Positions 4,707-14,011 of a stretch of DNA of 64,000 nt are shown piece by piece. The notes under the pieces were generated by a model. It worked only from the letters and a program-made list of their open reading frames with translations. It had not been told where the DNA came from and ran no database searches. How positions within the stretch are numbered: the first letter of the stretch is position 1; each line of letters begins with the position of its first letter. This DNA comes from Vulcanimicrobiota bacterium (GTDB lineage Bacteria > Vulcanimicrobiota > Vulcanimicrobiia > Vulcanimicrobiales > Vulcanimicrobiaceae), in NCBI GenBank assembly GCA_963820825.1, contig CAWGBN010000009.1, positions 64,001-128,000 of the forward strand, written 5' to 3'. Made by a program: the position numbers and the translations under genes.

Positions 4707-6830
<2,124 letters not shown>

Positions 6831-6844
<14 letters not shown>

Positions 6845-7228
6845 TGGCCACCGCGCTGAGCACGCCGTTGACGAAACGTCCGGAATCCTCGGTCGAGAAA
6901 CGTTTGGCGAGCGCCACCGCTTCGTTGATCGCCACCGCCTTCGGCGTCTCCGGGCGGCAGTGCAGTTCGAATGTCCCCATCTCTAAGAGCAGCCGGTCGA
7001 TCGTCGGCAAACGTTCGATTGCCCAGCCCTCCAAGAGCGGACTGACGATGCGATCGGCCTCTTTTGCGTATTCGAGCGTACCCATCGCGAGTTCCTCGAC
7101 GAACGTGCGCTGCTCGCTATCTGCTCCCTCACCGACGATCTCGGCGACGGCATCGCGCGGCTCCCGGTCGCCGATGACGACCGAATAGAGCACTTGAAGC
7201 GCCTGTTCGCGAGCGACGCGCCGCGACG

Positions 7229-7232
<4 letters not shown>
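6831..7232 (-). CDS. nusB: Transcription antitermination factor NusB
   Basis: RRVAREQALQVLY...AINEAVALAKRFS...FVNGVL. Confidence 0.95.
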
Positions 7233-8608
<1,376 letters not shown>

Positions 8609-8609
8609 C

Positions 8610-9503
8610 TTACTTTCCTCGCGCGACCAAGAAGAGCGGCTGACCGTACTCAACCGGCATCGCGTCGGCGGTCGCGACGGAGACGAGGCGGCCCGAACCC
8701 ATACTGTGAATCGGCGTGCGAATGCCGAGGGCTTCGATGTAACCGAGCTCGCGATCGCCGTCGAGCATATCGCCCTCGACCGGGGCGGGCCGGCTCAAGT
8801 GGAAAATTCCGACGAGATCGGCTTTGATCGCATCGATGCGTTGCGCTGCAACCTCAGGCGCTTTCGTTTCGGTGCTTCCTGCAGGCGGACGAGGCGCTTT
8901 TGCCGCCGCGACGAGCTCGATCTCTCCCTGCGCGTCCTCCACCCGCACGCGAACCGCATCGGTCTGGGCGAGGAAGTGCGCGAGTGCGCGTACGCGCTCG
9001 CTCGCGAGCCCCCGTTCTTCGGACATCACGGTTACGCTTTCGCGCTCGACGCGGGCGACCCCCGCGAGCTCCGATTCATGCAGCGCGTCGCGCGACGCTT
9101 CGAAGCGATCGTCGATTTCGGCGAGCGGCACCAATACGAAGGCGCGCTCGCGCAGACGCGGATGCGGCACCCGTAGACCGGGTTCGTCGATCTCGCAATC
9201 GTCGAAGATCAAAAGGTCGAGATCGACGATGCGCGGACCCCAGCGCTCGCTTCGGACGCGTCCGAGCTCATCCTCGACCGCATGCAGACGGCGCAAGAGT
9301 GAGTGCGGCGACAACTCCGTCTCGATTAGCGCCACGGCATTGAGAAACCACGGCTGCTCGCGGTTTCCCCACGGCTCGGTTCGATAGAACGCCGAACGGC
9401 GCACGACCCTTCCGAGCTCGCACATCAACGCAAGCGCCCGCTCGACGTTCTCGAACCGATCGCCGAGATTGCTCCCGATCCCAACGTATGCCCGGTGGAT
9501 CAA
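8610..9503 (-). CDS. folK: HPPK (FolK) fused to a C-terminal BCCP-like domain lacking the biotinylated lysine
   Basis: N-half GIGSNLGD, FLNAV, WGPRIVDLDLL, PHPRLRERAFVLVPL; C-half KADLVGIFH...GYIEALGI...PVEYGQPLFLV. Confidence 0.88.
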   Translation of the reverse strand: MIHRAYVGIGSNLGDRFENVERALALMCELGRVVRRSAFYRTEPWGNREQPWFLNAVALIETELSPHSLLRRLHAVEDELGRVRSERWGPRIVDLDLLIFDDCEIDEPGLRVPHPRLRERAFVLVPLAEIDDRFEASRDALHESELAGVARVERESVTVMSEERGLASERVRALAHFLAQTDAVRVRVEDAQGEIELVAAAKAPRPPAGSTETKAPEVAAQRIDAIKADLVGIFHLSRPAPVEGDMLDGDRELGYIEALGIRTPIHSMGSGRLVSVATADAMPVEYGQPLFLVARGK

Positions 9504-9865
9504 CGCGCTTCGAATCGTGGGTTCACCCGCTCGAGCGTCACGCTCGGCGTTGCGCCGTCGAGAATGCCCGGCTTAGAGAGGCTGACTCGCGCTCGCTCGA
9601 CGCGCCGGTCGGCGAAGACCGCATCGAGAAGATCGGCGCCGAGGCGCTCGAGGAGCGAATACGACGTGGTCGCGACGATGCGAACGAAGCGTTCGCGCAA
9701 CGCCGCGTAATCGAGGGTCTCCGCGAGATCGTCGCTTCGGCCGGCGGCGCTCAGATCGATCTCGACGGTGACGTCGATCTCGACGAGTTGACGCCGCGCG
9801 CGCTCCTGCGGCAGCGTACCGATCCGTCCATAGGCGCGGATGCCGCGCAGCGTCATGGAATCCAA
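9500..9865 (-). CDS. folB: Dihydroneopterin aldolase
   Basis: GRIGTLPQER, SDDLAETLDY, LLERL, SKP; TTG start with GGAGG SD; between folP and folK. Confidence 0.93.
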   Translation of the reverse strand: MDSMTLRGIRAYGRIGTLPQERARRQLVEIDVTVEIDLSAAGRSDDLAETLDYAALRERFVRIVATTSYSLLERLGADLLDAVFADRRVERARVSLSKPGILDGATPSVTLERVNPRFEAR

Positions 9866-10710
9866 TCGAGCGGCCTCCATCCGCGTGCGATCGCATCGGT
9901 GACGGCGGTTGCATCGCGCGCCGCCGCCACGTCGTGCACGCGAACCATATCGATGCCGGCGGCAATGGCCAGCGCGGTCGTCGCGACCGTGGCGTAGACG
10001 CGGTCGGCCGGCATCCGGCCGGTGAGCTTGCCGAGCGTCGACTTGCGCGACGTGCCGATCGTCGTGGGAAAGCCGAGCGCGACGATGCGGTCGAGCGACT
10101 TCAAAACGGCGATATTCTGCTCGGCGGTCTTTCCAAAACCGATTCCGGGATCGAGCACGATTCGTTCGGGCGCGATTCCTCGGGCCGTGGCGCGGGCCGC
10201 AGCATCGTCGAGATAGCGCACGACCGCGTCGACGACGGAACCATCGTACGACGTACCGATCTGATTGTGCATCGCGACAATCGGCATCGCCAGCTCGGCC
10301 GCGAGGTCCAAGAGTTCGTCGGGCGCTCCCCAGACGGAGTTGACGAGATCGGCGCCGGCGGCGTGCGCCGCACGGACGACTGCGGGCTTATAGCTGTCGA
10401 TCGAAATCGGCGCCTGCGGTAAGCGCGAGCGCACGGCGCGGATGACCGGCACGACGCGCGCGGCTTCGACGCCGGGACCGACGGCTTCGTGCCCCGGGCG
10501 GGTCGACTCACCGCCGATGTCGAGGATGTCGGCACCCTCGCTCCACTGAAGCGCGGCGCGGTCGGTCGCCGACGACGCATCTTCGAGACCGTCGCCGGAG
10601 AACGAATCCGGCGTAACGTTCACGATTCCCATGACGTAGGTTCGCGCGCCCCACTGCAGCTGCGCGCCGCGCAGGGGAAGACTCTTCAGACCGCGCTCGG
10701 TGCGTACCAT
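9853..10710 (-). CDS. folP: Dihydropteroate synthase
   Basis: MGIVNVTPDSFSGDG, DIGGESTRPG, DPGIGFGK, GTSRKS, RVHDV. Confidence 0.96.
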   Translation of the reverse strand: MVRTERGLKSLPLRGAQLQWGARTYVMGIVNVTPDSFSGDGLEDASSATDRAALQWSEGADILDIGGESTRPGHEAVGPGVEAARVVPVIRAVRSRLPQAPISIDSYKPAVVRAAHAAGADLVNSVWGAPDELLDLAAELAMPIVAMHNQIGTSYDGSVVDAVVRYLDDAAARATARGIAPERIVLDPGIGFGKTAEQNIAVLKSLDRIVALGFPTTIGTSRKSTLGKLTGRMPADRVYATVATTALAIAAGIDMVRVHDVAAARDATAVTDAIARGWRPLDWIP

Positions 10711-12005
10711 TCGCGTAATCCGGCGACGACGAAGGTCGAGCCGGTGACGACGACAACCTCGTCGATTTGAGCGCGACGGCGCGCAACGGTCAGCGCTTCG
10801 AGCGGATCTTCGATCGTGCGCCCCCAGGTGCCGAGCGTCTCGGCGATTGCCGCGAGCCGCTGCGGCGGTATCGATCGCCGCCCCGCGACCGCAAACTTCG
10901 TAAAGGTGAAGGTCGACGGCAGCCGGGCGAGGATCTCGACGATGCGCCGCGCGTCTTTGGTTTCGCCGATCGCGACGACGTAATGAATTCGCCGGCCGCC
11001 GAACCGCTCGCGCAACGACGCGACCAAAGACTCGGCCTTCTCGGCGTTGTGCGCGATATCGAAGACTACGACGGGATCGCGCGCGATTACCTCCATCCGT
11101 CCCGGAATCGCCAGCTCGGCAAATGCGCGCACGAGCGCCTCGCGACTGGGGCGCAGGCCGTCGCCGAGTTGTTCGATTACGGCGATCGCCGTCGCCGCAT
11201 TCGTACGCTGAAAGATACCCAAGACCGGCAACTGCAGTCGATACGAGCCGAGAGCCGACCGCACCGTCAGCGTCTGCCCGGCAGCGTCGCCGTCGACGCT
11301 CTCGATCCGCACCGTTTCGGCAACGTTGACGACCGGAGCGCCTGCCTCGGCGGCATATCGCTCGATCACCGCCGCGATGCTCGCCGGCAGTGCTGCGAGC
11401 ACGAGCGGAACGCCGCGCTTGGCGATGCCGGCTTTCTCCCGGGCGATATCCTCGAGGGTGCTTCCGAGCACGTCGGTGTGATCGTATCCGATCGAGGTGA
11501 TCGCCGCGACGAGCGGGTGAATCACGTTCGTGCCGTCGAGCCTGCCGCCGAGCCCAACCTCGATCACCGCAACGTCGACTCGCTCCTGCGCGAAGTAGAG
11601 GAACGCGAGCGCGAGCAGCGTTTCATAATAGGTTGGGCGTCCGTGACTCGATGCCGTACGCTCGATGGCCGGCATCATCGCGTCGAGCAGCGCGACGAAA
11701 CGTTCGCGCGAAATGGGGACGCCGTCGATCCGAGCCCGCTCGGTCATCGAATGGAAGTGCGGCTTCGTGTGCAGACCGGTGCGCCGTCCGGCGGCCTGCA
11801 ACGCGCTTGCGATCATCGTCGAAGTCGATCCCTTTCCGCTCGTGCCGCCGACGTGGATCGTCGGATAGGCGCGGTGCGGATCGCCGAGCTCGGCGAGAAC
11901 GGCGCGCATGCGGTCGAGCTTATACGCGGTGCGCGGCGAGGCGATCTCGTCGATCGTGCCGAGCAGATACCGCTCGGCCTCCTCGTAGGTTGCGAAGCGG
12001 TTCAT
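10686..12005 (-). CDS. folC: Folylpolyglutamate synthase/dihydrofolate synthase
   Basis: IHVGGTSGKGST, EVGLGGRLDGTN, EKAGIAK, PGRME, DIAHN, TGS. Confidence 0.95.
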   Translation of the reverse strand: MNRFATYEEAERYLLGTIDEIASPRTAYKLDRMRAVLAELGDPHRAYPTIHVGGTSGKGSTSTMIASALQAAGRRTGLHTKPHFHSMTERARIDGVPISRERFVALLDAMMPAIERTASSHGRPTYYETLLALAFLYFAQERVDVAVIEVGLGGRLDGTNVIHPLVAAITSIGYDHTDVLGSTLEDIAREKAGIAKRGVPLVLAALPASIAAVIERYAAEAGAPVVNVAETVRIESVDGDAAGQTLTVRSALGSYRLQLPVLGIFQRTNAATAIAVIEQLGDGLRPSREALVRAFAELAIPGRMEVIARDPVVVFDIAHNAEKAESLVASLRERFGGRRIHYVVAIGETKDARRIVEILARLPSTFTFTKFAVAGRRSIPPQRLAAIAETLGTWGRTIEDPLEALTVARRRAQIDEVVVVTGSTFVVAGLREWYAPSAV

Positions 12006-12484
12006 CCGTCGACGACGCGATCGGCGAGCAGTTCGAGCGCGTGCGGGAGCACCGGCAGGAGCACGTCGAGCGTCTCCGCGACCGCCTTCGGACTCCCGGG
12101 AAGATTCACGATCAGCGTGCGGTCGCGGACGCCCGCGAGCGCGCGCGAGAGCATTGCGGTCTTCGTCTTCGCAATTGAAGCGGCGCGAATCGCCTCGGCG
12201 ATTCCGGGAACTTCGTAATCGAGAATCGCCGCCGTTGCCTGCGGCGTCCGGTCTCGCGGGGAGAGTCCGGTGCCGCCGCTGGTAAGAATCAAATCGGCCG
12301 CGTGAGAATCGGCGAGCTCGATGATCTCGGCTTGCAGCGCTGCGGGATCGTCGCCGATGACCCGTTCGCGCGCGATCGCATAGACCGGTTCGAGCCGTTC
12401 CTTCATGAGCGGGATGCACTCGTCGGCGCGCTCGCCCGAAGCGGCGCGATCCGAGAGCACGATCAGTGCGACTCTGAAGCTCAC
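12002..12484 (-). CDS. mog: Molybdopterin adenylyltransferase (MogA/MoaB family)
   Basis: SDRAASGERAD, TSGGTGLSPRDRTP, SRALAG, NLPGSPKAV. Confidence 0.9.
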   Translation of the reverse strand: MSFRVALIVLSDRAASGERADECIPLMKERLEPVYAIARERVIGDDPAALQAEIIELADSHAADLILTSGGTGLSPRDRTPQATAAILDYEVPGIAEAIRAASIAKTKTAMLSRALAGVRDRTLIVNLPGSPKAVAETLDVLLPVLPHALELLADRVVDG

Positions 12485-12957
12485 GCCCTCTCCCGCGACC
12501 ACTGACCGCTCTTGCCCCCGCGCTTATGCAGCAGGCGGACCACCTCGATGGTAATCCCCTTGTCGAGCGCCTTCGACATATCGTAGATCGTCAATGCGGC
12601 GACCGAGGCCGCAACCATCGCCTCCATTTCGACGCCCGTTCGCGCCGTCGTGCGCACTTCGGCCTCGACGTGCAAGAGGCCGTCGCTTCCCCAATTGAAG
12701 CGAACGTCGACGCTCGAGAGCGGCAGCGGGTGGGCGAGCGGAATCAGCGCCGCGGTCTGCTTCGCCGCCATGATCCCCGCGAGCTGTGCGGTGACGAAGG
12801 CGTCGCCCTTCGGCAGCGTCGCGCGTTTGAGCGCGGCGACCGCCGCCGGATTCATCCGAACGAGGGCCTCGGCGCGAGCCGACCGCTGCGTGACGGCCTT
12901 CTTCGAAATGTCGACCATCGCAACGCTTCCATCGTGCGCGATGTGCGAAGGTTTCAC
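12481..12957 (-). CDS. moaC: Cyclic pyranopterin monophosphate synthase
   Basis: MVDISKK, KGDA, AAKQT..LIPLAHP, TGVEMEA, IYDMSKA, KRGGKSG. Confidence 0.95.
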   Translation of the reverse strand: MKPSHIAHDGSVAMVDISKKAVTQRSARAEALVRMNPAAVAALKRATLPKGDAFVTAQLAGIMAAKQTAALIPLAHPLPLSSVDVRFNWGSDGLLHVEAEVRTTARTGVEMEAMVAASVAALTIYDMSKALDKGITIEVVRLLHKRGGKSGQWSRERA

Positions 12958-13154
12958 CGAAGCGAGCGTGACGGCGAGCCTTGGAAGCGCGCCCAAATCA
13001 AGCAGAGCAGCGCGAGCACCCAGCAGACCACCAAATGGGTGATGTGATGCGGATGCACCGCGCCCGATTCGGTGAAGAAGTTGATCTTGCCCAGACCGTA
13101 GAGAATTCCCAGAACGAAGAAGGCGACGGCCAAGAGTAGGGCAACGATTCTCAT
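12954..13154 (-). CDS. Small two-TM membrane protein, unknown function
   Basis: 66 aa, two hydrophobic helices with a His-rich loop (VHPHHITH); overlaps both neighbours. Confidence 0.7.
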   Translation of the reverse strand: MRIVALLLAVAFFVLGILYGLGKINFFTESGAVHPHHITHLVVCWVLALLCLIWARFQGSPSRSLR

Positions 13155-14011
13155 GAAATGATTCCTCTCCTAGCGAGAACGTACGCGATTGCACCGAGGA
13201 TGACGCAGTACCAGCCGAACGGCCGCAGATCGTTGGAACGGAAGTAGCGCATCAAGAAGGCGACCGAAAGATATGCGGCGGCACCGGCGAGAATTCCGCC
13301 GCAGACCGCTTCGATGAGGACGATGTCCGCGCCGGGCGCGAAGAGTTTGGGCACCTCGAGCAGGCCCGCTGCGAGAATCACCGGCGTCGCGAGCAGGAAC
13401 GAGAAGCGGGCCGCGCTCTCGTGGTCGAGATCGCAGAGCAGGCCGGCGACCATCGAGATACCCGATCGCGAGATGCCCGGCAACAGCGCGAGCCCCTGCG
13501 CGACGCCGATCAACACGCTCGCCGGATAACTCAACTCTTCGATCGGCTTGTACGAACCGGCGCTCGCACGGTGTTGACGCCGGCGCAGCGCCTCCCCGGC
13601 AAACATCACGAGGCCGTTGACGATCAGAAAGAGTGCCGCCGGCCCGGGCGATCCAAAGAGCCGGCGGACGGGCGCCTCGAAAATGACGCCGAGAATGCCG
13701 ACGGGAATCGTTCCCACGACCAAACGCCAGCCGATTCGTTCGTCGCGATTATCACTCAACTGGCCGCGCACGATGCTGCCCACGAGCGCGCGCACGATCG
13801 CATACCACTCCGTCCGATAGTAGACGATGAGTGCGACCGCCGTACCGAGGTGAAGGACGACGACGAATGCGAGAAACGACGGACTCGCACGCTCGAAGTT
13901 CCAGTGGAGCAGCGCCGGAACCAAGATCGTATGGCCGAGGCTCGAGACGGGGAAGAGTTCGCTGACGCCCTGCAGGAGTGCGAGCGCGAGCGCCTGCGCG
14001 AAGGTCATCAC
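13151..14011 (-). CDS. uppP: Undecaprenyl-diphosphate phosphatase (BacA/UppP)
   Basis: LQGVSELFPVSSLGH, LHLGT, PGISRSG, ARFSFLL. Confidence 0.95.
   Translation of the reverse strand: MMTFAQALALALLQGVSELFPVSSLGHTILVPALLHWNFERASPSFLAFVVVLHLGTAVALIVYYRTEWYAIVRALVGSIVRGQLSDNRDERIGWRLVVGTIPVGILGVIFEAPVRRLFGSPGPAALFLIVNGLVMFAGEALRRRQHRASAGSYKPIEELSYPASVLIGVAQGLALLPGISRSGISMVAGLLCDLDHESAARFSFLLATPVILAAGLLEVPKLFAPGADIVLIEAVCGGILAGAAAYLSVAFLMRYFRSNDLRPFGWYCVILGAIAYVLARRGIIS

Follow-up and report, generated by a model that had tools for sequence, protein, structure and literature searches.

A lysine-less AccB twin beside accC in the Vulcanimicrobiota, fused to FolK in some lineages

The closest described systems are the BADC proteins of plant plastids. 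In published accounts these proteins pair with biotin carboxylase and BCCP without taking part in catalysis, either inhibiting the enzyme or helping it to assemble (PMC11926652, PMC11889953, PMC12706156, bioRxiv 10.64898/2025.12.30.697075); one account calls them unique to the plant enzyme (PMC11926652). In Chloroflexus aurantiacus BC1 (PDB 8HZ4) it is the N-terminal hairpin of the BCCP, not the core, that assembles biotin carboxylase oligomers and raises activity (PMC11077971). The protein described here, which we call the AccB twin, can be set beside each of these. Like plant BADC1-3, it is a BCCP paralogue without the biotinylation motif that coexists with a working BCCP and a heteromeric ACC; unlike them, it is bacterial, occupies the accB slot directly before accC and is fused to FolK in some lineages. 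It keeps a predicted hairpin at the same place as the Chloroflexus BCCP, which is, however, fused to the carboxylase and biotinylated. With E. coli AccB (4HR7, 1BDO; TIGR00531) it shares the N-terminal helix-hairpin, the Ala/Pro linker, the barrel and the place before accC, but it lacks the acceptor lysine, its thumb is 5 residues shorter, and a true AccB is encoded elsewhere in the genome. A literature search, with most subscription journals outside its coverage, found no published bacterial lysine-less AccB or FolK-AccB fusion. From its position in the slot and from a graded Lys/Arg/Gly series at the lysine site, we infer that the twin, most likely BADC-like in kind, evolved separately. Whether the non-biotinylated mimics of plastids inhibit or assemble is disputed, and the matter could be settled more simply in a bacterium whose small accC operon is served by one twin and one working AccB.

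The window, that is, the whole 64,000-nucleotide stretch analysed, belongs to the genome of a soil bacterium (G000, 85% complete). It carries the gene run folC-folP-folB-fusion-accC-nusB-penicillin-binding protein gene, in which Pfam and NCBIfam models match accC and the fol genes; folC, nusB and the penicillin-binding protein gene are named from their sequences, presumably correctly. The folK::accB-twin fusion (8610..9503, minus strand) is one open frame of 297 codons whose TTG start overlaps the folB stop. Its HPPK (FolK) domain, residues 6-131 (9111..9488, minus strand), matches Pfam PF01288 at E 8.6e-41 and scores 144.5 bits on TIGR01498, above the cut-off of 54.1; the single frame, its position and the intact HPPK motifs are thus as given in the preliminary description. 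On the 5' side, also on the minus strand, lie folB (9500..9880; PF02152), folP (9853..10710; PF00809) and folC (10686..12005; Mur-ligase domains PF08245 and PF02875). On the 3' side and the same strand are accC (7229..8608; TIGR00514, 647 bits, above cut-off), whose frame opens 1 base past the fusion stop, and nusB (6831..7232), which is conserved in its place 3' of accC. A scan of window positions 6500-13500 returned no sigma-70 promoter sites, and terminator-like sites were at chance level (6 vs 4.6). FolK is known in other multi-domain forms (HPPK, TIGR01498), and the window's FolK is likewise intact and part of a folC-folP-folB-folK run; the difference is that its partner is no folate enzyme, being the AccB twin in parts of the family and a methyltransferase in outer families.

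The start of accC is apparently an ATC (8606-8608, minus strand) behind GAGG. At the position of AccC Met1 we read ATT in 38 of 100 loci, ATC in 17, ATG in 17, GTG in 14, TTG in 9 and other codons in 5. A non-standard accC start across the lineage could keep AccC less abundant than the twin.

Counted from its own ATG, the twin comprises 138 aa (8610..9026, minus strand). Pfam Biotin_lipoyl gave no match in these C-terminal 138 residues, even at E<=1, and on the BCCP model TIGR00531 the twin scores 32.1 bits, below the cut-off of 115.2; the canonical AccB of the same genome, at 111.4 bits, is itself slightly below that cut-off. A profile built from 76 twin sequences aligns to E. coli AccB (4hr7_B) at E 2.3e-13, covering positions 12-137: EaLgi falls on EAMKM, and the thumb appears as a 5-residue gap. 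An hhalign comparison with the lineage's own AccB gave a probability of 98.9, and the thumb gap is seen there too. AlphaFold2 predicts for the free twin a helix, a hairpin, a loose linker and a barrel (elements H3-21, E26-31 and E34-39; mean pLDDT 84), and the best Foldseek match of this model is 1bdo, the AccB biotinyl domain. Mapped onto the window (all minus strand), the AccB-type N-terminal helix and beta-hairpin span fusion residues 167-198 (8910..9005), the biotinyl-type barrel spans 8619..8840 with its shortened thumb near 8795-8787, and EALGI replaces EAMKM at 8721..8735, with Gly (8726-8724) at the biotin-lysine position. The twin combines a biotinyl-domain fold with an AccB-type N-terminal module. 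These comparisons show it to be a full-length AccB homologue without the biotin lysine and thumb, so that what had been described as an AccB-shaped region with EALGI and no acceptor Lys turns out to have AccB homology over the entire length of the twin. Codon comparisons over 16 pairs show that it is kept under purifying selection (dN/dS 0.11 in the barrel and 0.19 in the N-terminal module). We also looked for a charge complement that would fit an AccB/twin heterodimer, and this failed: the first 42 residues of the twin have a median net charge of -1.

We examined 104 loci of the class, of which one (L114) was dropped since it gave no tblastn hit (it was later recovered as L138). The remaining 103 are a non-random sample: 45 are the top-scoring same-genus matches, and the others were chosen across genera with frame lengths considered. 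The lysine site holds Gly in 87 of them, Lys in 9 and Arg in 7. All Gly loci belong to the window's order, where the residue is invariant (82/82 in the family, 5/5 in a second family); the K-to-G change reported for the window therefore extends to all its sampled relatives in the order. The 16 loci of the outer family account for the 9 Lys, which read EALK[LV], and the 7 Arg. Since Lys is kept in 9 of these 16, modification may still occur in the outer-family EALK copies. From family to family, the Lys/Arg/Gly series shows a carrier turning into a pseudo-carrier. Among the outer-family twins (L063-L077, L115, L138), Lys and Arg switch even inside one genus (Arg in L064, Lys in L065), and the proteins end with an acidic tail bearing a conserved EPPR[LMI].

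The twin lies directly 5' of accC in every class locus long enough to show it. Its domain is matched in 61/61 relatives and in 273/301 genomes of the phylum, a count in which weak matches outside the class could be either paralogue; genomes marked unpublished are included in both tallies (G048, G059), and the second also takes in G197, G222, G239, G245, G253, G255, G267 and G275. By these matches, the source bacterium and nearly all examined members of the phylum appear to keep a biotin-incompetent AccB copy beside accC. This breadth disposes of the idea that the twin is a decaying pseudogene or an assembly artefact. The source assembly is indeed frameshifted elsewhere (hisS, a SigH-like gene, two carboxylases), and one relative, L027, from a 68% complete genome, has a TAG at twin codon 4; but relatives refute this reading, to which we give next to no probability, by the presence of the domain in 61/61 and 273/301 genomes, by the barrel dN/dS of 0.11 and by a Gly that is invariant across the order. 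Nor is the EALGI fusion a sequencing artefact, because Gly is found in 87/87 loci of the order and a frame of at least 298 codons is open in 59 of the 63 same-genus genomes with a match.

A profile search of 31 chosen genomes gave matches in 25. In 24 of these 25 the best match precedes accC; the remaining one is a canonical AccB copy near hisS. The 24 accC-slot copies, 23 of them from other classes, include none with Lys. Lysine-less AccB homologues occur also in Armatimonadota and Ktedonobacterales. One Fervidibacter locus has a DALGV copy 5' of accC and nusB; at two other loci, L168 (Armatimonadota) and L169 (Ktedonobacterales), no accC match was found within 3 kb of the homologue, so outside the phylum the twin can also lie away from the slot. 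A locus scan with alignment A5 returned mainly canonical AccBs (Lys in 76/80). In databases, members of the twin family are labelled Candidatus Eremiobacteraeota, one as Dormibacteraeota and, in the Atlas, Vulcanimicrobiota. For annotation this means that, in this phylum, the carrier should not be sought in the gene before accC, and that the fused form can be named FolK alone, as two database names are.

The working carrier lies elsewhere. On contig C6 the source genome encodes a canonical AccB, complete with EAMKL and thumb, between genes that we take to be hisS and a gmhA-like gene; this is the separate accB that the preliminary description had called for. A canonical AccB is found at a separate locus in 58/61 genomes (a tally that includes the unpublished G048 and G059), and EAMK is invariant in the 21/21 aligned. 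Beyond the three tallies so marked, nothing claimed here depends on unpublished genomes. With the motif columns dropped, slot and canonical copies form separate clades within the class (support 97/97 and 100/99), in a tree that leaves unsupported the deep branching that bears on whether slot copies of different classes and phyla share an origin. As to the rest of the enzyme, an AccA family member and AccC are present in the source genome, and the window's accC is the sole stand-alone biotin carboxylase found there; another carboxylase continues into a carrier domain that is frameshifted. The biotin/lipoate ligase family was not found in this 85% complete genome and is present in 5/5 relatives. 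Frameshifted housekeeping genes of the source genome (hisS in L117; C2:170863-171454; C2:239813-241466; C6:714783-715637) are consistent with indel errors of the assembly.

These data bear on what the twin does. Its position, its fold and the plastid analogy make it quite likely that the twin belongs to acetyl-CoA carboxylase as one of its subunits. It might instead have left that enzyme for a new partner, say by decoying biotin ligase or PII or by scaffolding a different enzyme, its adjacency to accC being simply inherited. The loss of both thumb and motif, the drift of the sequence beyond the Pfam model and the lack of resolution in the deep relations among slot copies would fit such a departure, but the linkage to accC is tight across the phylum while upstream neighbours change and the working accB has moved away, and the N-terminal assembly module is retained; we regard a change of partner as quite unlikely.

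The fusion has a different history. Of the 103 loci, 54 are fused, 13 have the genes adjacent but separate, and in 36 folK is distant or without a match; the fused count includes two loci with frameshifts inside folK (L012, L100), and L027, with its stop at twin codon 4, was counted as separate. The twin thus stands alone in 49/103 loci, among them all basal lineages of the family and both outer families. In the window's genus 42 of the 47 examined loci are fused, which, together with the long frame in 59/63 genomes, makes the fusion genuine; across the family, 28 genera were sampled and 10 of them show it. On a five-gene tree with 52 of the loci, at least 7 changes between fused and unfused states are required, with separate fused clades and reversions inside them, and a single clade of folK-adjacent loci is rejected (p-AU 1e-54). 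By this phylogeny the fusion is real but patchy, and it arose several times. The expectation that relatives conserve it therefore stands for the genus and falls for the class. At 13 of the 15 non-adjacent loci of the family, folK and the twin are separated by a GAF-HD gene, homologous from locus to locus, which is encoded on the opposite strand and points away from the twin; since this intervening gene is divergent, the twin heads its own transcription unit at these loci. The GAF-HD gene has no match in the source genome (85% complete) at E 1e-10.

The twin's start, Met160 of the fusion at position 9026, is preceded within the linker by a start signal (9027..9062, minus strand) with GGGGTC at -36..-31 and CGAA at -16..-13 (9042-9039). 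A start codon is kept at this position in 54/54 fused loci (52 ATG, 2 GTG), and CGAA is found at -18..-13 in 89/103 loci, whether fused (45/54), adjacent (11/13) or distant (33/36), counts that are somewhat inflated as starts were picked with the help of a GAA rule; the suspicion that Met 9026 serves as a separate start is borne out to this extent. Over the 36 nt before the ATG there is no codon periodicity (entropy 1.00/1.09/1.06, against 0.09/0.06/1.11 in the core, over 40 fused same-genus loci). Linker dS is 0.11, compared with 0.40-0.43 in the flanking coding parts, and linker dN/dS is 0.66; given this low dS, the high ratio and equal variation across codon positions, the linker is constrained as DNA rather than as peptide. 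Its length ranges from 66 to 147 nt. The model of the whole fusion gives mostly pLDDT >90 for the HPPK domain, 57-61 for the linker and a pTM of 0.54, with no confident packing of the domains.

The preliminary description had proposed that a BADC-like factor tethered to a folate enzyme links folate to fatty-acid synthesis. In its strongest form, the twin would recruit FolK to acetyl-CoA carboxylase and so tie malonyl-CoA supply to pterin or folate status. Such coupling would suit the recurrence of the fusion in 10/28 genera and separate clades, a strong bias of junctions to the reading frame, and a FolK under purifying selection (dN/dS 0.19, 15 pairs). It is nevertheless unlikely: the genes are apart in most lineages, with the twin alone in all basal ones, fused clades contain reversions, a linker of 66-147 nt that holds the twin's start signal is constrained as DNA and not at the protein level, the model packs no domains together, and FolK has a different partner, a methyltransferase, in the two outer families. 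We found neither a single origin or fixation, nor protein-level constraint on the linker, nor loss of the internal start, which would have marked a selected fusion. We know of no metabolite common to HPPK and biotin carboxylase. Repeated origin and stand-alone twins thus speak against the tether, and a fusion without any signalling role is very likely.

The bias of the junction calls for an explanation of its own. Among the 66 adjacent loci measured, 61 keep the frame across it, and within the genus so do 8 of the 9 different linker lengths, where chance would give one third and kinship inflates the excess. Some selection for read-through may lie behind this. The twin could be a non-catalytic AccB partner and read-through could be mildly favoured for housekeeping rather than signalling: it might make the C-terminus of FolK more stable, spare it a junk tail, or couple translation to the twin-accC unit that follows. 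That one genus has kept the fusion for long agrees with this, as does the finding that one of the two shifted junction frames would extend FolK by 32 junk codons (median); the other would add just a brief tail, with a median of 9. Yet in-frame stops shortly before the twin ATG occur in relatives (L016, L024, L078, L087, L088, L112), so a clean split of folK and twin is viable, and we hold a housekeeping advantage to be improbable, if worth keeping in mind. Read-through needs no special change, because the 12 codons preceding the twin ATG already lack stops in 15/15 of the family's distant loci, with no frame running through them there.

The account that we favour on balance, with some reserve, takes the twin as a non-catalytic ACC subunit and the fusion as a tolerated by-product. 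An old accB duplication produced two copies: the working carrier, beside hisS, and the twin, which occupies the slot ahead of accC. In the twin the thumb disappeared and the biotin lysine was lost, the site being Gly across the order and Lys or Arg in the outer family; helix-hairpin and barrel stayed under purifying selection. Judging by position, fold and analogy, it would co-assemble with AccB and AccC through its N-terminal hairpin and, as glue or brake in the manner of plastid BADC, govern how acetyl-CoA carboxylase assembles or how active it is. The divergent GAF-HD gene that separates folK from the twin would have been lost in several lineages, presumably by deletion, after which folK lost its stop and read through the naturally stop-free signal region into the twin. 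Initiation at the internal start would supply free twin, and the folate transcript would yield some FolK-twin besides, a tolerated product and no regulatory device. Deletion of one gene can in this way repeatedly yield an in-frame fusion that resembles a functional clue and is probably none here; of the two, the twin is of more consequence than the fusion.

The element 5' of the twin ATG may be either promoter-like or an extended ribosome-binding site. GAAAG could pair with the 16S tail CTTTC; the GG..CGAA arrangement resembles a putative sigma-H-type consensus, and the SigH-like gene of the source genome is in two pieces, each below cut-off. Across that genome, CGAA at -17..-14 precedes 123 of 1536 ATG starts from rough gene calls, compared with 3.1% of internal ATGs; genome-wide, CGAA 14-17 bases 5' of an ATG may mark a class of leaderless or short-leader promoters. 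Starts preceded by CGAA rarely co-occur with a standard ribosome-binding site.

Of the 54 fused loci, 49 have both FolK motif patterns, GPRxxDLD and PH. In the two outer families a methyltransferase follows FolK in 11 of 21 loci and is fused to it in all three ORFs scanned, giving FolK::class I SAM methyltransferase proteins of about 410-437 aa (L061:1163-2473, L069:4510-5808, L077:4623-5855), the last with a degenerate HPPK portion. The source genome also carries, outside the window, a second HPPK domain above the Pfam cut-off (G000:C9:264270-264629).
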